Source: Promethearchaeota archaeon
Lineage (GTDB): Archaea > Asgardarchaeota > Lokiarchaeia > Sigyniarchaeales > SOKP01
NCBI GenBank assembly: GCA_011364925.1
Contig: RDOA01000002.1
Location: forward strand, 129,044-193,043
Direction: 5' to 3'
Length of the DNA stretch: 64,000 nt
Shown here: positions 46,257-63,757 of the stretch, one piece after another
Layout: every line of letters starts with the position of its first letter
Position numbering within the stretch: the first letter of the stretch is position 1
The notes under the pieces: generated by a model
Database searches by the model: none
Told to the model about the DNA's origin: nothing
What the model saw: the letters and a program-made list of their open reading frames with translations, nothing else
Position numbers and translations under genes: made by a program

Positions 46257-47396
46257 TTATGTTTTTTCTAATTCCATTTGGCTAATCGCTTTACCAGACC
46301 TAAATGGTATATCATCAATACTTTCCCCAGAACTATATCCAAATTTTTCCTTGAAGGCGTCATTTAATGATTGAAAGTATAACGATAGAGGAAGATGTTG
46401 TGGGCAGTTGTTATCACAATTTCCGCATTCCACGCAACGATCGGCAACGTGAGCGATTCTTGTTAATTGATAAGATTCTTTGTTGATGATCTTTTCCTTT
46501 CTCTTCTTCATTAGGATACAGTCAACACAATAACATACAGGACAGCCACGAATGCACATGTTGCACATCGTACATTTCTGAAATTTATCGAGCTTTTCTT
46601 CTTGCGAAAGTTTGTCCCACTCTTCTAAATCTTTTGCTCTTTTTGCCAAAGCTGTATCTTTTATACCCTTAAGGACTTCTTGATATTTTACTTTCAGATC
46701 ATCAGGTAATGGTTTTTTATTGATTTTAGACTTCTCTACAAGCTCGGCGCCTTTATTCGAATAAATCTTTAGAACTATTTCGTCAGAATCAATAGGTAGA
46801 ACGAGATCACTTACAGCGATATCTGCTACAGCCGGAACCTTCCTATAGCATCGTGAACAGTTTTCTGCTATGTTCAATCCAACTTCTTTAGTGCTACCAT
46901 CTTCAAATTGAAGGATTAATCCATTATCACCGACTTTTTCCTTAACAATTTTAGTTAAATCGATGCCTTCTACTTTCTTTATCTCACGGGAAACATCTAC
47001 TACCATCCCTCTATCCTCAAATCCTACGATGAAGAGATTATCCATGTTAATCTGCCTAATCTTTGCTAGCTCAATTATCCCTCGAGCATCACAAGGACGA
47101 GCGATTATACCTACTTTCTCGTTTTTTGCCCCATCGACGGATTTATGTAAAAATTTTGCAGCAGTATCCGTTCGAGCGTATCCATATGCTATCAAATTAG
47201 TTAAAGGAAATGTAGCAAAATCTTCTGGCTTCTCAACAAGTACAGGAGAAACTGTAAACCGATCAACAGCCCCAGATTTCTTGTCTACCTTCAAGTTTGC
47301 TCCGATTACTTTATCAACGAATTTTTCTTGCAAAAGTGTAGCTAATAGTTTAGGAAAATCTTCAATTTTGATTAAATATTCATCTAATGCATCCAT
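46257..47396 (-). CDS. FdhB/FrhB-like (F420-interacting beta subunit family) Fe-S protein
   Basis: RPCDARGIIELAKIRQIN, CSRC...ADI, CTMCNMCIRGCPVCYC, CVECGNCDNNCP. Confidence 0.75.
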   Translation of the reverse strand: MDALDEYLIKIEDFPKLLATLLQEKFVDKVIGANLKVDKKSGAVDRFTVSPVLVEKPEDFATFPLTNLIAYGYARTDTAAKFLHKSVDGAKNEKVGIIARPCDARGIIELAKIRQINMDNLFIVGFEDRGMVVDVSREIKKVEGIDLTKIVKEKVGDNGLILQFEDGSTKEVGLNIAENCSRCYRKVPAVADIAVSDLVLPIDSDEIVLKIYSNKGAELVEKSKINKKPLPDDLKVKYQEVLKGIKDTALAKRAKDLEEWDKLSQEEKLDKFQKCTMCNMCIRGCPVCYCVDCILMKKRKEKIINKESYQLTRIAHVADRCVECGNCDNNCPQHLPLSLYFQSLNDAFKEKFGYSSGESIDDIPFRSGKAISQMELEKT

Positions 47397-56371: not shown

Positions 56372-59131
56372 ATGACCGAAACGACAGATAAAAGCGTAAG
56401 CGAGAAGGGTGATAAAATACTCTCAAGCAATATCATAAAAAATGTTATCGCGAACGCAAATTATTGTTATAATTGTAATCGCTGCGTAAATGTATGTCCC
56501 GTTTCTTACCTAGATTTATTCTATCCGAGAAATTTGATCACGGACTTAACATTTTTAACTCCAGAAGAAGCGTTAGATAATAATAATATCTGGGATTGTC
56601 TAACATGCGGATTATGCACAGAGTATTGTCCAATGACTAAAGATAAAACGGGCGTGAATTTTACTGAGATTATTAAGGAACTTCGAACATTAACATCAGA
56701 ATACGAACCATTGCAAGAAACTCTACGTAGTTGCAATCACGATCGAGTGTATTCGAGCATTCCAAAATTAATGGCAGACGATAAGATCAAATTTACCAAT
56801 AAGCTTGGCTTCTTGCAAGGTACAAATCTTAAAACAAGAACTCAAGGGGAAATCGCTTATTTCGTGGGTTGCGTTCCAATTTTGACTGGAACTGCACCAT
56901 GTGTCGTTGGGTGTCCAGCCGAAGTTGATGTTCAAGGGTACGTTTCATTAATATCCGAAGGTAAGTTCCAAGAAGCTTTAGATTTAATAAGAGAAATGAA
57001 TCCATTACCTTACTTATGCGGTCGAATATGTACTGCACAATGTGCCTTAAATTGCAATCGACAGCATCACGATGATCCAGTTGCAATTCGAGAGTTGAAA
57101 CGTTTCGTTACTGATTACGAAGTTGCTCATCCAAACAAAAGTACAATAAAGCCAGTCAAACAAACCAAAGAAAAAGTAGCGATTATAGGAGCTGGACCTG
57201 GAGGATTATCTGCTGCTTATTACCTGGCAAGAATGGGATATAAACCAACAATCTTCGAAAAAGGTGATAAAGCAGGTGGCGTCGTAAGATATGGCGTGCC
57301 TCAATACAGACTATCAGATGAAGCACTAGATCACGATATCGATTTCATAAAAAGTATGGGAGTCGAGATAGTATTAAATAAAGAGTTTGGAGCTGATTTT
57401 ACTCTAAAAGATCTCAAAAAGCAAGGATTTGAAGCAGTATTTCTCGCAGTAGGTTTATATATCCCAAAAACTTTAAGATTAGAAGGAGAAGACTTGCCTA
57501 ATGTTCATGTCGCATTAGATTTTCTCTTAGATCGTAAATACAAATGTGCTGAAAATCCTGAAGAATTTAAAGGTAAAACCTTTGGAATAATTGGAGGCGG
57601 AGCAGTTGCCGTTGATGTTGGTGAAACTGCTGTGAGATTGGGAGCAAAAAAAGTTGATTTGGTGGATATTTTAACTAAAGAGGCTCTTAAAAATGTGTTA
57701 AAAGACTTGCACGAAGCTGAAAAAGAGATCATGGAGTATCATTTTGCTACATCAACTAAAAATATAACTCAAGAACCTAATGGAAAATTAGCCTTGAACT
57801 GTTATACGATTGAGTGGGGCGATCCCGACCCCGAAACTGGAAGAAGACCTCTAACCAAAGTTGAAGGTTCTGACTTCAAAATAGTTGTTGACTATATAGT
57901 CACAGCTATAGGGCAAGGACTTGATCTAGAACCATTAAATGCTGCAACTGATAATCAATTAAAATTAGAGAGAGGAAAAATAGTTGTCGACGATTTAACG
58001 CTTGAAACAAGTATACCAGGCGTTTTTGCTGGTGGGGATATAATCTTTGATTCATTAATGTGCGCTGTTGATGCAATTGGAGATGGAAGAGAAGCAGCAT
58101 ATTCAATAGATCGCTATTTGCGAGGAGTAAATTTAAAAGAAGGAAGGATTAGTAAAAAGAATTTTAAGCGTTCTACGATACCTAAGAAGTATATTCAAGT
58201 TAATGCTTGTCAAGAAATGAATTTTATGCCAAGTGAAGAAAGACTAGTCTGTTTTGACGAGATGGAGTTAGGTTATACAGAAGAACAAGCAAAGAAGGAA
58301 GCAAATAGATGCTTAAACTGCAATTGTTGTTGTAACACTGACCAAATCCCTGAAGATTATGCTGCGGGGCTAGATTCGTCAGGAATTATGGTTTGCAACT
58401 ACGGAAACCAGAGTAACATGAATTCATATAACGCACCAGATTATCTCGCAATTCCAAAAAGCATAATCGGAATTTTGAATCACAATGAAATTGTACCTGT
58501 CGTTTTACCAGAGGAAAAGTGCTGCGGACACGATCTCATATGGGAAGGGGACACAGAATCGTTTGAAAAGTTAGCAAGATATAATGTCAAATTATTTAAG
58601 GATGCTGGAGTGAAAACAATCGTTTTTAGTTGTCCTGAAGGTTACTATACTTGGAATAACGATTACAGACACCTATTTAAGAAGAGCGAAGAATTTGACT
58701 TTGAACTGTATCATATATCAGAGTATATTCTGAAAGAGAATCTCTTAGAAGAAATGTCCTTTCCGAATTTAGGAGAGATAAAAGTAACCTACCACGATCC
58801 ATGTAGGCTTGGTCGCATGAGCGATATATATGATGCGCCTCGTGAAGTCTTGAAGCAAATTCCAGGCATAAAATTGCTTGAAATGGAAAATAATAAAGTT
58901 AATGCCGATTGTTGTGGCGTATCTGCTTACATTTCTTGCAATCAAAATTCTAAGCTTTTGCAAGAATCAAGAATAAAACAGGCAATAGAAACGGGTGCTG
59001 AGTACTTAATTACAACTTGTCCAAAATGTTTAACACATCTAAATTGTTACCTAAACGAAAATAAAGAGTTAAAAAGTAAAATTAAGGTAATTGATTTGCT
59101 GACTTTTATTGGTAAAATGCTCTTTATGTAA
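56372..59131 (+). CDS. HdrC/HdrD-like (Fe-S and CCG domain) protein with nested GltD/NfnB-type flavoprotein module
   Basis: CYNCNRCVNVCP, WDCLTCGLCTEYCP, AYFVGC; insert APCVVGCP...GAGPGG...FAGGD...RCLNC; then EKCCG, SCPEG, TYHDPCRLGR, CCG, TTCPKC. Confidence 0.85.
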   Translation: MTETTDKSVSEKGDKILSSNIIKNVIANANYCYNCNRCVNVCPVSYLDLFYPRNLITDLTFLTPEEALDNNNIWDCLTCGLCTEYCPMTKDKTGVNFTEIIKELRTLTSEYEPLQETLRSCNHDRVYSSIPKLMADDKIKFTNKLGFLQGTNLKTRTQGEIAYFVGCVPILTGTAPCVVGCPAEVDVQGYVSLISEGKFQEALDLIREMNPLPYLCGRICTAQCALNCNRQHHDDPVAIRELKRFVTDYEVAHPNKSTIKPVKQTKEKVAIIGAGPGGLSAAYYLARMGYKPTIFEKGDKAGGVVRYGVPQYRLSDEALDHDIDFIKSMGVEIVLNKEFGADFTLKDLKKQGFEAVFLAVGLYIPKTLRLEGEDLPNVHVALDFLLDRKYKCAENPEEFKGKTFGIIGGGAVAVDVGETAVRLGAKKVDLVDILTKEALKNVLKDLHEAEKEIMEYHFATSTKNITQEPNGKLALNCYTIEWGDPDPETGRRPLTKVEGSDFKIVVDYIVTAIGQGLDLEPLNAATDNQLKLERGKIVVDDLTLETSIPGVFAGGDIIFDSLMCAVDAIGDGREAAYSIDRYLRGVNLKEGRISKKNFKRSTIPKKYIQVNACQEMNFMPSEERLVCFDEMELGYTEEQAKKEANRCLNCNCCCNTDQIPEDYAAGLDSSGIMVCNYGNQSNMNSYNAPDYLAIPKSIIGILNHNEIVPVVLPEEKCCGHDLIWEGDTESFEKLARYNVKLFKDAGVKTIVFSCPEGYYTWNNDYRHLFKKSEEFDFELYHISEYILKENLLEEMSFPNLGEIKVTYHDPCRLGRMSDIYDAPREVLKQIPGIKLLEMENNKVNADCCGVSAYISCNQNSKLLQESRIKQAIETGAEYLITTCPKCLTHLNCYLNENKELKSKIKVIDLLTFIGKMLFM

Positions 59132-59270: not shown

Positions 59271-60155
59271 TTGCCTTTCGAAATTCTCGAAAAGACGGAG
59301 CTTGGAACGAGTGGAACAATTTTTGAAATGGTGGTGAAAACACCATTAATCGCTAAAAAAGCATATGCAGGTAACTTTGTCCTTATTAGGGTAAACGAAA
59401 CTGGTGAAAGAATTCCACTTACAATAGCCGATTACGATAGAGAAAAAGGAACGATAACGCTAGTAATTCAAGTGGTTGGTAAAAGCACGAAATTACTATG
59501 CAACCAAAAAGTTGGGGATAAGATCCTTGATGTTGTAGGACCGTTAGGGAATAGAATCCATGTTGAGAAATATGAACATCCCATCGTAATTATCGGTGGT
59601 GGAATAGGGATTGCTCCTTGTTATCCTCAAGCAAAAGAGTTAAAAGAAGCAGGTAATAAAATAATCACGATTTTGGGTGCTCGAAGTAGAGGATTACTGA
59701 TTTGGAAAGATAGAATAAACTCTGTTAGCGACGAATTAATCATTACAACCGACGATGGAAGCGAAGGGATTAAAGGAGTTGTCACTGATCCCTTAAAAGA
59801 AATTCTTAAGAATAAAGAAATAAGCTTAGTTATTGCGATTGGACCTTTAATAATGATGAAATTCGTTGTGATGGCGACGAATGGTTCGGAGGGATTACCT
59901 AAAGTAAAGACATACGTTTCTTTGAACACCATTATGATCGATGGAACAGGTATGTGTGGATGTTGTCGATTCTCTACTCTTGAAGGTGATATTAAATTTG
60001 CGTGCGTTGATGGACCAGATGTAGACGGTCACATCATAGATTTTGATAACCTTTTGAAGCGTGCCAATAGGTTTCTTGATAAAGAAAAGTATTCATTAGA
60101 ATGTTACGATGATGAATGTAGAGCTTTAGAAAAATATAAAAAGGAGGCGTTTTAA
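59271..60155 (+). CDS. nfnA: NfnA/SudB-like FAD and [2Fe-2S] subunit
   Basis: GERIPLTIAD, VVGPLG, GGGIGIAP, TDDGS, IDGTGMCGCCR...FACVDGP. Confidence 0.88.
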   Translation: MPFEILEKTELGTSGTIFEMVVKTPLIAKKAYAGNFVLIRVNETGERIPLTIADYDREKGTITLVIQVVGKSTKLLCNQKVGDKILDVVGPLGNRIHVEKYEHPIVIIGGGIGIAPCYPQAKELKEAGNKIITILGARSRGLLIWKDRINSVSDELIITTDDGSEGIKGVVTDPLKEILKNKEISLVIAIGPLIMMKFVVMATNGSEGLPKVKTYVSLNTIMIDGTGMCGCCRFSTLEGDIKFACVDGPDVDGHIIDFDNLLKRANRFLDKEKYSLECYDDECRALEKYKKEAF

Positions 60156-60159
60156 ACTG

Positions 60160-62889
60160 GTGGAGCAGAGATCGTTGACAAACATATTAACTAGTAATAT
60201 TTCCAAAATCTTAAGCGTAGGGAAATACACTAAAGATGAGCTAGACACTCTAATCGAGGATGTTACTAGCGCAGAAAGAACGAGAACTACTATTTTAGAA
60301 AAAATAAGAGCATATAAAAGCATAGATATTCCTAAATTAAGCACAGAACTTTCACTATCAACAAAAAGATTAACATGTGATCTTAAATTCTTAAAAGAAC
60401 TTGGCTATTTAAACGCTATAGGGGAATATCCAAGGTTTTTTGAAGCAGAAATTGAAGAATTCAAGAATATTGGATTATTCCCTAATGTTAAATTAATTAG
60501 AGACAATAATTTATGTTGTGGTTGCGGTGCTTGCGAATCAATTTGTCCTGTTAACGCAATCTCCTATTCGAAAGGATCTTTTGAATTGGATGAAGAAATA
60601 TGCATGCACTGCGGACTTTGTTTTACTAGTTGTCCAAGATCCTTTTTTCCAAAAGTCTTAGATGAACCCGAAGATGAACCTACTGAGAATCTTGAGTATT
60701 TAAAGGAATTTAATTACTATCGCGAGATACTTACCGCCCAAACGACTGACAAGAAAATTGCGAAAGTCGCTCAAGACGGAGGTATTGTCACATCGCTGTT
60801 AAAACTCGCGTTCAAGGAGAAGCTTATTGACGGTGCGTTAGTTGTAACTGAAAGTAATGAACCATTAAATCCAATTCCTATCTTGGTTAACAGCCATGAA
60901 GATCTATTAAAAACTGCGGGAACAAAATACACCAACTCACCAATATTAAAAAAACTTTGTCAATTTAAAGAATACAAAAAAATTGCAGTTGTTGGAACAC
61001 CATGCATTATGAAAGCTCTAAGAAAGCTCTCGTTTTTTCCCTTAAGTAAACCACTTTATGAAAATATCGCCCTCAAGATTGGATTGCTGTGTTTCGAATC
61101 CTTCGATTATGAAAAAATTACAGAACTTTTGAAGGGCGAGTTTCAAAGTACTCCTGCTGAAATTAAAAAAATGGATATAAACAAAGGGCGCTTTATCATC
61201 TACAATCACGACGGTGCTGTTCACGACATTCCTATTAAAAAAATCAAGAAGTATGGTAGGCTTGGTTGCTTTTTCTGTGAAGATTTGACGGCTATACACA
61301 CTGATATTTCTGTAGGATCAATTGGATCAGATGCAGGTTGGTCTACTGTGTTTATAAGGACTAAAAAAGGTGCTGAATTCTTCCAAAAAGCTCTAGACCT
61401 CAATATGATTGCAACGAAGAAAATTGAGGATGATAGTAGAAGCTTTAGCTCACTAAGCAGAATAGCAGAAAACAAACTGAAATACTACGAAGAATTTACG
61501 CGACCGAAAACGATAGAACAAGAACCAAATATTAGAATTACAAATTTCGCGGAAGTATCCTTTGGCTTAACTGATAATATGGTTGATCGAGAAACGAAAC
61601 GATGCTTACAATGCGGGAATCCTCTCTGTGTGTCGGGTTGCCCAGTTAACATAAAAATTCCTCAATTTATTAAGCTTTTAGGCGAAAGAAAGTATAAGGA
61701 CACTCTTTATAAGATAAAAACAGATAATTTATTACCAGCAATTTGTGGAAGAGTGTGTCCGCAAGAGACACAATGCGAACAAGCTTGTCTCCTAAGCGGT
61801 CTTGGGGAGCCTATAGCGATCGGACAGATGGAAAGATTTATCGCGGATTGGGAACGAAGGAATAATATTAAGGAATGTCCTGAATGCGCTAGTCCAAATG
61901 GAATAAAAGTTGCTGTTATAGGAGCTGGTCCTTCAGGACTGACATGTGCTGGGGAACTCGCGATGAACGGCTATGACGTAACTATTTTTGAGGCGTTTCA
62001 CACTGCGGGCGGCGTTCTGAATTATGGAATACCCCAATTCAGGCTCCCAAAAGAAATTATTATAAGAGAAATTGAGACATTAGAAATGCTTAATGTTAAA
62101 CTCAAATATAACTCCATAATAGGAAAAACCCTTACGATTGACGACTTAAAAGATATGGGTTTTAAGGCGTTTTTTATAGGTGTTGGAGCTGGATTACCTA
62201 TGCTATTGAAAATTCCCGGAATTAGTTTGATTGGGGTTCTCTCAGCTAACGAATTCCTCACTAGGACTAACTTAATGAAAGCATTTCGATTTCCAGAATA
62301 TGATACCCCTATTAAAGTGGGTAAAATCGTAACAGTCATTGGGGGGGGAAATACAGCACTAGATTCTGCTAGAACCGCTTTACGGTTAGGAGCCGAAAAA
62401 GTTATCGTGGTTTATCGTAGATCTGAGGTGGAAATGCCGGCAAGAAAAGAAGAGTATCACCACGCTCTTGAAGAAGGCATTGAATTTCGATTTTTAACTA
62501 ATCCAGTGAGATTTATTGGAGACGAAAACGATAATGTATGCAAAATGGAAGTCGTTAAAATGAAATTAGGGGAACCAGACGATTCTGGCAGGAGAAGGCC
62601 TGTAAAAATTGAGGGTTCCGAATACACTATTGATACCGATACAGTTATTATTGGGATCGGTACTAGTGCAAATCCAATCTTAATCAGAACGATACCAGGA
62701 TTAAAACTTACTAAATGGGGCTATATTGAGGCGGATGAGAAAGGTCAAACTAGCGTGGAAGGTATTTTTGCTGGGGGCGATATCGTTTCCGGAAGCGCAA
62801 CTGTTATATCAGCAATGGGATTTGGAAAAAGGGCTGCTCATGCAATAGATAAATATCTTCAAGAGAAAAATTCGAATAAAAATAATTAA
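60160..62889 (+). CDS. Fusion protein: wHTH-like segment, FrhB (F420-binding) domain, NfnB/SudA-like NADP(H) oxidoreductase
   Basis: CCGCGAC..CP, AQDGGIVT, AGTKY, VGTPC, GLLCFESF, GCFFCED..DISVG; then RCLQC..CVSGCPV, CGRVCPQETQCE, GAGPSG, GGGNTALD, YRRS, FAGGDIV. Confidence 0.88.
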   Translation: MEQRSLTNILTSNISKILSVGKYTKDELDTLIEDVTSAERTRTTILEKIRAYKSIDIPKLSTELSLSTKRLTCDLKFLKELGYLNAIGEYPRFFEAEIEEFKNIGLFPNVKLIRDNNLCCGCGACESICPVNAISYSKGSFELDEEICMHCGLCFTSCPRSFFPKVLDEPEDEPTENLEYLKEFNYYREILTAQTTDKKIAKVAQDGGIVTSLLKLAFKEKLIDGALVVTESNEPLNPIPILVNSHEDLLKTAGTKYTNSPILKKLCQFKEYKKIAVVGTPCIMKALRKLSFFPLSKPLYENIALKIGLLCFESFDYEKITELLKGEFQSTPAEIKKMDINKGRFIIYNHDGAVHDIPIKKIKKYGRLGCFFCEDLTAIHTDISVGSIGSDAGWSTVFIRTKKGAEFFQKALDLNMIATKKIEDDSRSFSSLSRIAENKLKYYEEFTRPKTIEQEPNIRITNFAEVSFGLTDNMVDRETKRCLQCGNPLCVSGCPVNIKIPQFIKLLGERKYKDTLYKIKTDNLLPAICGRVCPQETQCEQACLLSGLGEPIAIGQMERFIADWERRNNIKECPECASPNGIKVAVIGAGPSGLTCAGELAMNGYDVTIFEAFHTAGGVLNYGIPQFRLPKEIIIREIETLEMLNVKLKYNSIIGKTLTIDDLKDMGFKAFFIGVGAGLPMLLKIPGISLIGVLSANEFLTRTNLMKAFRFPEYDTPIKVGKIVTVIGGGNTALDSARTALRLGAEKVIVVYRRSEVEMPARKEEYHHALEEGIEFRFLTNPVRFIGDENDNVCKMEVVKMKLGEPDDSGRRRPVKIEGSEYTIDTDTVIIGIGTSANPILIRTIPGLKLTKWGYIEADEKGQTSVEGIFAGGDIVSGSATVISAMGFGKRAAHAIDKYLQEKNSNKNN

Positions 62890-62896
62890 TATTTTT

Positions 62897-63757
62897 TTAA
62901 TGTTGACCTTGAGGGCAGACCTTCAAGCAATTTGAGCAATAATTATTGTCTAATAAGCTCTCCATACATTTTTCCCGATCTATGTGTGTAATTACACCAG
63001 ATCCTTTAACTTTTTCAATAGGTTCTTCGTATGTTGCTTTACCAAGGCAATTTATGATACAAACACCACAAGTTTCACAAAATTCTTCCATTTCAGTAAA
63101 ATCTACTTTTAATGTTTCAGGAATTTCTGCATCTGTGGTAATAATGCTCCAACGTTGCCTTGGACCGAATTCAGGAGTTACTATAAGTCCATTCCTCCCT
63201 TTAATTCCTAATCCTGCCGCTACAGCGTGAGCTGTATATAAGAGTTTTCCTCCAAAAGGATGATGAGCTTCCGATCTGTATCCTTCTTCTTGTAGAAACT
63301 GTGATAACTCGATCGTTTTTTCACCTAATTCATAATACACTCTAAACGCTTCAATACTAACCTGAATACTTGGTGCTGTTTTGATTTTATTCCACTCCAT
63401 TTCCATACCTAAAATTATCGCGTTCTTTCCAACTATAGGAAGATTTTTAAAAACATAGTTTTTTAACACGGGAGTATAACCAATAAGCGCAATACCCTTT
63501 TCTCTAGCTAAGCTCTCAAACTTTGTCCAAAACTCCGGTGTCGTTTCGGTCTTATTATTATCGCCATTTTGATATTTTGTTTTGTTCGCCTTTTTAAAAC
63601 CTTTAAATGTGCCTGTTAAATACTTACTATACTCTTTTGCTGTTTCTCGATCTAAATTTTCACCCTCTAATTTCATCGTGAAAAGTTTAGTCGGGACAAT
63701 AAAAACTAAATCCTTGTTTTCTCCAATAAAAGTAGGCTCTACTTTTTCTTTTTCCAT
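62897..63757 (-). CDS. Reductive dehalogenase/QueG-like cobalamin and 2x[4Fe-4S] protein (paralog of 6040..7041)
   Basis: HPFGG, AGLGIKGRNGLIVTPEFGPRQR, CETCGVCIINC, CSNCLKVCP. Confidence 0.75.
   Translation of the reverse strand: MEKEKVEPTFIGENKDLVFIVPTKLFTMKLEGENLDRETAKEYSKYLTGTFKGFKKANKTKYQNGDNNKTETTPEFWTKFESLAREKGIALIGYTPVLKNYVFKNLPIVGKNAIILGMEMEWNKIKTAPSIQVSIEAFRVYYELGEKTIELSQFLQEEGYRSEAHHPFGGKLLYTAHAVAAGLGIKGRNGLIVTPEFGPRQRWSIITTDAEIPETLKVDFTEMEEFCETCGVCIINCLGKATYEEPIEKVKGSGVITHIDREKCMESLLDNNYCSNCLKVCPQGQH

Follow-up and report, generated by a model that had tools for sequence, protein, structure and literature searches.

Described systems and the locus

Nfn serves as the textbook example of a minimal enzyme for flavin-based electron bifurcation, and all forms characterised to our knowledge place ferredoxin on the low-potential arm. 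In Thermotoga maritima and Pyrococcus furiosus, it is a two-gene unit with flavin adenine dinucleotide (FAD) as well as a [2Fe-2S] cluster in the small subunit NfnA (NfnS), and with two [4Fe-4S] clusters, a Glu ligand, a bifurcating FAD and an NADP-type site in the large subunit NfnB (NfnL). Here we describe a pair of nfnA and a gene fusion containing nfnB in a Promethearchaeota archaeon (GTDB lineage Archaea; Asgardarchaeota; Lokiarchaeia; Sigyniarchaeales; SOKP01). The pair is located in a stretch of 64,000 nucleotides, hereafter the window, which covers positions 129,044 to 193,043 of the forward strand of contig RDOA01000002.1 (assembly GCA_011364925.1). It is predicted to share the named features with the T. 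maritima and P. furiosus enzymes, but differs from them in about 445 extra N-terminal residues on the large subunit and in a third substrate which is probably coenzyme F420.

Modules comparable to these extra residues are known from other enzymes. The zeta subunit (8RIU_B) and FwdI (8RJA_E) of Candidatus Ethanoperedens thermophilum likewise consist of an N-terminal ferredoxin domain with two [4Fe-4S] clusters and an FrhB-type part with FAD and [4Fe-4S]. It was shown biochemically and structurally that they enable carbon monoxide dehydrogenase (CODH) and Fwd to reduce F420 instead of ferredoxin, and that they dock to these enzymes through the N-terminal ferredoxin domain (Lemaire et al., 2024, PMC11493965). 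The concept of a normally ferredoxin-using enzyme hard-wired to F420 would be the same here. Nevertheless, zeta and FwdI are separate subunits on CODH (ACDS) or Fwd and feature no helix-turn-helix (HTH)-like domain, whereas the partner in the present case is Nfn. Fsr of Methanococcales (7NP8, 7NPA) resembles the fusion in being one polypeptide, in which the N-terminal ferredoxin-FrhB half oxidises F420H2 and feeds the electrons via a [4Fe-4S] relay into the fused C-terminal catalytic half. This half, however, is a sirohaem sulfite reductase, and Fsr has neither a second subunit nor a second nicotinamide site.

Fusions of an NfnB/GltD-type module to another bifurcation or Fe-S module have also been described for uncultured archaea, i.e., ANME-1 and Bathyarchaeia. 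The nearest published cases are the HdrA-NfnB fusions of ANME-1 (Chadwick et al., 2022, PMC9012536) and the GltD-insert type III HdrA (PMC12054007), but in these proteins NfnB is inserted into HdrA, and both an FrhB domain and an NfnA partner are missing. The F420H2:NADP+ oxidoreductase Fno connects the F420 pool with that of NADP and may in this respect overlap physiologically with the present pair, although it is a small, unrelated enzyme of hydride transfer that contains neither flavin nor Fe-S clusters. In the full-text literature (subscription-only papers not covered), no description of an FrhB-NfnB fusion was found. Based on its sequence, we class the fusion as NfnAB with a putative built-in F420-reductase connector of the Fsr/zeta/FwdI type.

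Gene pair and Nfn core

The two genes and their junction are located as follows.

59271..60155, + strand: nfnA (NfnS), TTG start, 294 aa; small subunit with FAD, NAD(H) site and [2Fe-2S] cluster
60143..60159, + strand: GGAGG ribosome-binding site, nfnA stop and 4-nt spacer, by direct reading of the sequence
60160..62889, + strand: whole fusion gene, GTG start, 909 aa; HTH-like, 2x[4Fe-4S], FrhB and NfnB domains

The TAA of nfnA (60153-60155) is followed after a gap of 4 nt (ACTG) by the GTG of the fusion gene at 60160, and the GGAGG at 60143-60147 lies ahead of this GTG inside the end of nfnA. The start of the fusion gene is backed by homologues, which open with M-E-x-Q at the same place. Accordingly read, nfnA and the fusion gene appear as a translationally close two-gene unit. 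Both open reading frames and the gap between them are exactly those given in a preliminary description of this DNA, which had been made from the letters alone.

NfnA reached 362.7 bits with the NCBIfam model PRK06222 (cut-off 220), 285.7 bits with the small subunit of P. furiosus NfnI (5JCA_S) and 266.6 bits with T. maritima NfnA (4YLF_A). Its [2Fe-2S] motif DGTGMCGxCR...C could be aligned with that of 5JCA_S, the Asp ligand being retained. Since it is the only NfnA above the cut-off in the genome, the pair is considered the organism's only Nfn.

The NfnB part occupies the C-terminal half of the fusion product.

61513..61866, + strand: NfnB N-terminal domain with distal and proximal [4Fe-4S] clusters; residues 452-569; Fer4_20
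61906..62868, + strand: NfnB bifurcating-FAD and NADP(H) domains; residues 583-903; includes YRRS

Pfam matches were obtained for Fer4_20 (residues 459-569 of the 909-aa product, 129.5 bits) and Pyr_redox_2 (residues 583-886, 131.6 bits). Residue conservation was read from an alignment of 30 full-length homologues, in which the cluster ligands C482, C485, C490, C494, C533, C539, and C543 are invariant and C529 is nearly so. Likewise invariant is E558, which is aligned to E126 of P. furiosus NfnL, the Glu ligand of the proximal cluster; according to published mutagenesis, this unusual ligand holds the two Nfn branches coupled. The motif GGGNxAxD...YRRS is conserved as well, with YRRS itself (residues 752-755, nt 62413-62424) being invariant or nearly so. 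Residues 452-901 scored 546 bits with T. maritima NfnB (4YLF_B) and 524 bits with the P. furiosus NfnI large subunit (5JCA_L), but only 496 bits with the non-Nfn paralogue 5VJ7, i.e., below both Nfn scores. The intact NfnB with an NADP-type YRRS motif that had been claimed before is thus borne out by both Pfam domains, the T. maritima score and the motif, while the large subunit, with its 909 aa, exceeds the stand-alone length of about 470 aa that characterises NfnAB/NfnSL.

In databases, the fusion proteins carry names such as 'NADPH-dependent glutamate synthase' or 'F420 hydrogenase beta subunit C-terminal domain.' The former would make the protein the small subunit of an F420- or NADPH-dependent glutamate synthase, and it agrees with a score of 574 bits for NCBIfam TIGR01316 'NADPH-dependent glutamate synthase' (cut-off 471.75) and with a glutamate dehydrogenase gene upstream in two relatives. 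Still, the adjacent gene is nfnA, both here and in five relatives, no GltB-like gene is present in the unit (GltB was not searched genome-wide), and among solved proteins the assayed NfnB of T. maritima and P. furiosus come closest. We regard a glutamate synthase as barely credible, and the database names are a systematic misannotation.

The putative F420-reductase module

Two domains of the module lie between the N-terminal HTH-like domain and the NfnB part.

60493..60654, + strand: ferredoxin-type domain with two [4Fe-4S] clusters; residues 112-165; Pfam Fer4_9, Fer4, Fer4_7
60706..61491, + strand: FrhB-type F420-reductase domain with FAD and one [4Fe-4S] cluster; residues 183-444; FrhB_N, FrhB_C

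The Fer4 dicluster match spans residues 112-161, and all eight cysteines of the ferredoxin domain (C119, C122, C125, C129, C148, C151, C154, and C158) are invariant among the homologues. The subsequent domain matches FrhB_FdhB_N (residues 191-264, 79.9 bits, gathering cut-off 22) and FrhB_FdhB_C (residues 273-424, 143.5 bits, gathering cut-off 23.3). Residues 183-444 reached 189.9 bits with Methanosarcina barkeri FrhB (6QGR_B) and 172.6 bits with Methanothermobacter marburgensis FrhB (3ZFS_C), and the motifs QDGGIVT, GTKY..SP, GTPC, GLxCxE, GCxxCxD, and DISVGSIGS..GWSTV align with both structures. Therein, we take QDGGIVT, GTKY, DISVGSIGS, and GWSTV to be FAD-binding motifs. The cluster cysteines C282, C311, C370, and C373 are invariant. 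The complete 2x[4Fe-4S] and FrhB domain fused to NfnB, as seen previously, is confirmed by the Pfam domains and the invariant ligands; a lack of FAD, which had been named as a possible objection, finds no counterpart at sequence level, as the four cluster cysteines and the motifs of solved FAD-containing FrhB proteins are kept. The domain is not assigned to FrhB proper, the beta subunit of F420-reducing hydrogenase, which is associated with FrhA and FrhG: its scores stay under the curated cut-offs, and the genome has no FrhA above cut-off.

A ferredoxin domain directly before an FrhB-type domain is the layout of the connector modules in the N-terminal half of Fsr, in FpoF, zeta and FwdI. Residues 113-440 align end to end with zeta (8RIU_B) and FwdI (8RJA_E) at 182 bits, and the module scored 139-155 bits with Fsr (7NPA_A 155 bits). 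The ferredoxin-type domain (residues 112-165) is likely an electron connector. The FrhB domain ends at about residue 444 and NfnB starts at about residue 450, the junction residues being conserved; therefore, the module sits directly on the domain with the two low-potential clusters. By analogy with these connectors, a ferredoxin and an F420-reductase domain directly before the two-cluster domain of NfnB are what the proposed wiring would need.

It is improbable, in our estimation, that the FrhB-like domain does not use F420 but serves as an FAD/Fe-S relay to a partner or another substrate, in which case the enzyme would be ferredoxin-linked or linked to another acceptor. Members that are independent of F420 occur in the FrhB family, as the match to 5DQR illustrates, the scores lie under the NCBIfam equivalog cut-offs for FrhB, and the expanded FrhB copies found in many contexts need not all use F420. 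Against this, 190 bits were obtained with M. barkeri FrhB and 182 bits with the F420-reducing zeta/FwdI, but only 28 bits with the F420-independent member, and both the F420 pathway and the F420-dependent Mtd are present.

F420 in the genome

The genome of the window (3.9 Mb, 100% complete by markers) encodes CofG, CofH, CofD, and CofE above curated cut-offs and the F420-dependent methylene-tetrahydromethanopterin (H4MPT) dehydrogenase Mtd (354 bits). From these genes the organism is predicted to make F420; the check for cof genes advised earlier, a lack of which would have spoken against an F420-linked enzyme, was accordingly positive. Fno was not found in the genome (best match 23.5 bits), and FrhA, the large subunit of F420-reducing hydrogenase, did not exceed its cut-off there (151.5 vs. 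392.5 bits).

This bears on a further explanation, in which the pair is a non-bifurcating F420H2:NADP+ oxidoreductase that replaces Fno, with electrons wired between the FAD groups of FrhB and NfnB and with NfnA in a structural or regulatory role. While the missing Fno and the nearly equal potentials of F420 and NADP would suit such an enzyme, NfnA, its ligands and the branch-coupling Glu ligand are strictly conserved. Moreover, according to published work on NfnSL, the bifurcating flavin cannot easily accept two successive electrons from the low-potential branch alone, which also counts against it. We consider this replacement of Fno quite improbable.

Matches to the FrhB_C family number 12 in the genome of the window, and five same-genus genomes (G235, G244, G247, G255, and G268) contain 24-51 matches each to the 445-aa module. 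The FrhB-type repertoire is expanded in the genus, and its paralogues include several proteins of about 500 aa with an HTH-like-ferredoxin-FrhB layout. Outside the window, a 605-aa protein (G000 contig C112, L010:949-2766) combines FrhB_N and FrhB_C with a C-terminal, NfnA/PyrK-like half, which reached 162.7 bits with the NfnA model and has DHODB_Fe-S_bind. Its gene adjoins a POR-gamma gene, and copies of 608-611 aa occur in same-genus genomes. A second, different FrhB/NfnB-type chimera of the same genome is an 820-aa protein, in which a GltD/NfnB-type module (Fer4_20 190-284, Pyr_redox_2 297-596) lies between FrhB_N (75-146) and the FrhB_C end (666-733). It is encoded in a co-oriented cluster (G000 contig C48, L064:185-7268, outside the window) with an HdrB-like CCG protein (304 aa), HdrA (679 aa), MvhD (154 aa), and an MvhG-like protein (411 aa).

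Distribution and history of the module

The fusion is real, conserved and no assembly chimera. Absence from relatives or a chimeric assembly had been considered beforehand as grounds for rejecting it, but four relatives (57-65% identity, five contigs) contain nfnA directly before the fusion with a tight junction and differing flanks, and nfnA is located directly upstream in every locus examined. A word-indexed search revealed about 95 protein clusters (902-935 aa, 56-82% identity) that carry the fusion, with source names of Promethearchaeota, Lokiarchaeota or Hermodarchaeota. It occurs in about 60 genomes, all of which belong to a single GTDB family (Lokiarchaeia-type Asgard archaea), the one that also includes the genome of the window. 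In a comparison of 400 genomes from the phylum, full-length matches were confined to this family, other families featuring plain NfnB only. When 1.84 billion representatives were searched exhaustively with residues 110-600, one single 50%-identity cluster spanned FrhB and Fer4_20, and the remaining matches were FrhB-only or NfnB-only. An apparent bacterial case in a metagenome-assembled genome of Candidatus Acetothermia (L117), matching residues 115-905, was rejected, being plain nfnA and nfnB; the match is extended because the adjoining HdrA-like gene has a Fer4 domain. One genome of the family (G175:C211, L062:2361-8742, - strand) encodes nfnA and, behind it, two full-length FrhB-NfnB fusions in tandem (913 and 906 aa), and several others have two fusion copies on different contigs.

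At the orthologous locus of a same-genus genome (G255), a plain 491-aa nfnB replaces the fusion. The neighbourhood is that of the window, comprising an aldehyde oxidoreductase, a 920-aa Fer4-GltD-CCG gene, nfnA and a 288-aa convergent gene. The first 36 residues of this plain NfnB are homologous to residues 416-452 of the fusion, i.e., to the tail of the FrhB domain; this plain form thus derives by deletion from a fused ancestor. A split gene instead of a loss was ruled out, as the plain-NfnB genomes contain no orthologous module elsewhere (best match 38-41% identity). In a maximum-likelihood tree of 52 NfnB domains, plain NfnB is basal. A large group within the family is made up of the fused sequences, and two plain clades branch from among those of the genus. 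Branches with good support require three changes or more, and none of the bootstrap trees is compatible with only one. One gain and at least two losses are the simplest history of the module. As a plain nfnB with the relic of the FrhB tail stands at the identical locus, the base enzyme is a working Nfn and the module an add-on, namely an optional plug-in.

This replacement raises the question of free ferredoxin. In a four-substrate enzyme, F420 would be an added entry or exit, while free ferredoxin would still dock on the fused ferredoxin domain or on NfnB; depending on the pools, the complex would interconvert NADPH, NADH, ferredoxin and F420, e.g., reduced ferredoxin with F420 or F420H2 with ferredoxin. 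The fused domain has the fold of a clostridial-type 2x[4Fe-4S] ferredoxin and could lie exposed at the surface, the NfnB part is 74-83% identical to the plain, ferredoxin-using NfnB of sister species and equally conserved, and a single locus is occupied by either the plain or the fused form. Nevertheless, the equivalent domain in Fsr, zeta and FwdI is an internal connector instead of a docking site for free ferredoxin, and no result of this analysis favours a free ferredoxin site. Accordingly, we hold a four-substrate enzyme to be unlikely, and F420 probably takes the place of ferredoxin in the fused Nfn.

Proposed mechanism

Following the domain order, the pair would be an NfnAB (NfnSL-type) flavin-based electron-bifurcating transhydrogenase whose large subunit gained a ready-made Asgard module at its N terminus, consisting of the HTH-like, ferredoxin and FrhB domains. 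NADP(H) would react at the bifurcating FAD of the NfnB part, from which one electron would reach NAD(H) through NfnA, by way of its [2Fe-2S] cluster and its FAD. The other branch would comprise F420, the FrhB FAD, the FrhB cluster, the two clusters of the ferredoxin domain, the distal and proximal NfnB clusters and the bifurcating FAD. Therein, the module would contact the distal NfnB cluster and exclude free ferredoxin, and the FrhB FAD would gather two electrons and exchange a hydride with F420. As the best reading, in which we have slightly better than even confidence, we propose the following reaction.

2 NADPH + NAD+ + F420 <-> 2 NADP+ + NADH + F420H2

The three pools would thereby be tied as 2E(NADP) = E(NAD) + E(F420). 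If the NADPH pool is reduced and the NAD pool oxidised, the reaction would presumably run toward F420H2 and NADH, and NADPH from amino-acid oxidation could thereby enter F420-dependent reactions, e.g., that of Mtd in the H4MPT pathway. Concerning the wiring of the low-potential branch to F420 suggested in the preliminary description, the domain architecture is as such wiring would need it, while the wiring and the use of F420 keep their conditional standing. The role of F420 as a low-potential acceptor, by contrast, did not hold. The NADP, NAD and F420 couples are all near -320 to -340 mV, which places the proposed reaction near equilibrium, unlike that of ferredoxin-linked Nfn; with F420 at about -340 mV, it would be no energy-storing bifurcation.

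Several points weigh against F420-linked bifurcation. Bifurcation toward an acceptor at -340 mV stores no energy, which leaves the selective advantage unclear, and the module is dispensable, having been lost at least twice within one genus. F420 specificity is not readable from sequence, and the FrhB family includes members without F420 use, e.g., the chlorophyll-a reductase 5DQR, to which the domain is a weak match (28 bits); bound F420 is absent from the Fsr and Frh structures, from which no specificity residues are definable. The FrhB domain remains under both NCBIfam FrhB cut-offs (NF006807, 262.5 vs. 269; TIGR03289, 231.6 vs. 331.5). The 605-aa fusion of FrhB and an NfnA/PyrK-like half is a candidate for another direct F420:NAD(P) link in the genome. 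The full-length model was of only moderate quality (pLDDT 79, pTM 0.72, junction pLDDT 62-71), and the F420-linked activity of the fused Nfn is deduced from sequence and analogy.

It is conceivable, even if we lean slightly toward doubt, that the fused Nfn is a true F420-dependent bifurcating/confurcating enzyme and the first to couple NADPH, NADH and F420 without ferredoxin. If so, a reduced NADPH and an oxidised NAD pool could push the F420 pool well beneath its midpoint, to an effective -450 mV or lower, and F420 would be a soluble low-potential two-electron carrier that replaces ferredoxin for many Asgard FrhB-linked Hdr, Mvh and other modules. A natural Nfn wired to F420 would extend electron bifurcation to a new combination of substrates and offer a direct experimental handle on a low-potential branch that tolerates a much more positive two-electron acceptor. 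Moreover, it would help to explain the balance of NADPH, NADH and F420 in Lokiarchaeia; the present genome has neither Fno nor an FrhA above the cut-off. Among the relatives of the eukaryotic host lineage, Lokiarchaeia are those studied best. Sister species, in which the plain enzyme stands at this locus as a deletion derivative, provide a natural control pair for biochemistry.

N-terminal HTH-like domain

The module begins with a further domain.

60160..60489, + strand: HTH-like domain without cofactor ligands; residues 1-110; AlphaFold2 model

No Pfam family matched residues 1-110 above threshold, the sub-threshold matches being HTH_11, CggR_N and HVO_A0114 (E ~0.07-0.09). The AlphaFold2 model of the domain (28 sequences) reached pLDDT 87.8 and pTM 0.79. 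All top matches of this model in VIA-align were HTH domains (Lrp/AsnC, MarR, ArsR, Z-alpha), with Z ~7, a value in the range where the tool warns of a mere common arrangement, and with a root-mean-square deviation of 1.6-2.1 A over 51 residues (model residues 37-88). Foldseek searches of the PDB with the model returned nothing at E <= 0.001. The segment had been taken for a winged HTH; its HTH-like nature is supported by VIA-align on the AlphaFold model, but no beta wing is predicted therein. Asgard proteins of about 500 aa that stand alone contain the same domain ahead of ferredoxin-FrhB (P0115: 39% identity, residues 16-441). A redox-sensing DNA-binding regulator, to which we give as little credence as to the glutamate synthase, would agree with the fold matches being DNA-binding proteins. 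Nevertheless, the domain also occurs in FrhB enzymes that stand alone, no wing is predicted for it, and its Z is only ~7. We read it as a structural or docking part of the Asgard FrhB subfamily, with no evidence of a regulator.

Neighbouring genes

Upstream of nfnA, a 919-aa protein is encoded at 56372-59131 (+ strand), which features a Fer4 dicluster, a partial Fer4_20, Pyr_redox_2 and two CCG domains. This gene, combining an NfnB/GltD-type with an HdrD/HdrB-like module, probably encodes a separate enzyme. It was rejected as a partner of the pair, as it is kept in the same-genus genome but replaced in more distant relatives, where a glutamate dehydrogenase (two relatives) or an Mpt_N gene (two others; NAD(P)-type methylene-H4MPT dehydrogenase-like) is located upstream of nfnA and the fusion. 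Both kinds of neighbour fit a role of the pair as an NADPH hub, which is only suggestive. Downstream, at 62897-63757 (- strand), follows a gene for a 286-aa protein with two C-terminal Cys motifs (CxxCxxCxxxC ... CxxCxxxCP) and only a weak Fer4_7 match. It is the convergent neighbour of nfnB in fused as well as plain genomes and measures 282 aa in a relative of 58% identity. Furthermore, a 379-aa open reading frame of the window (46257-47396, - strand) shows a weak FrhB_C match (45 bits) and lies within an hdrA-mvhD cluster.

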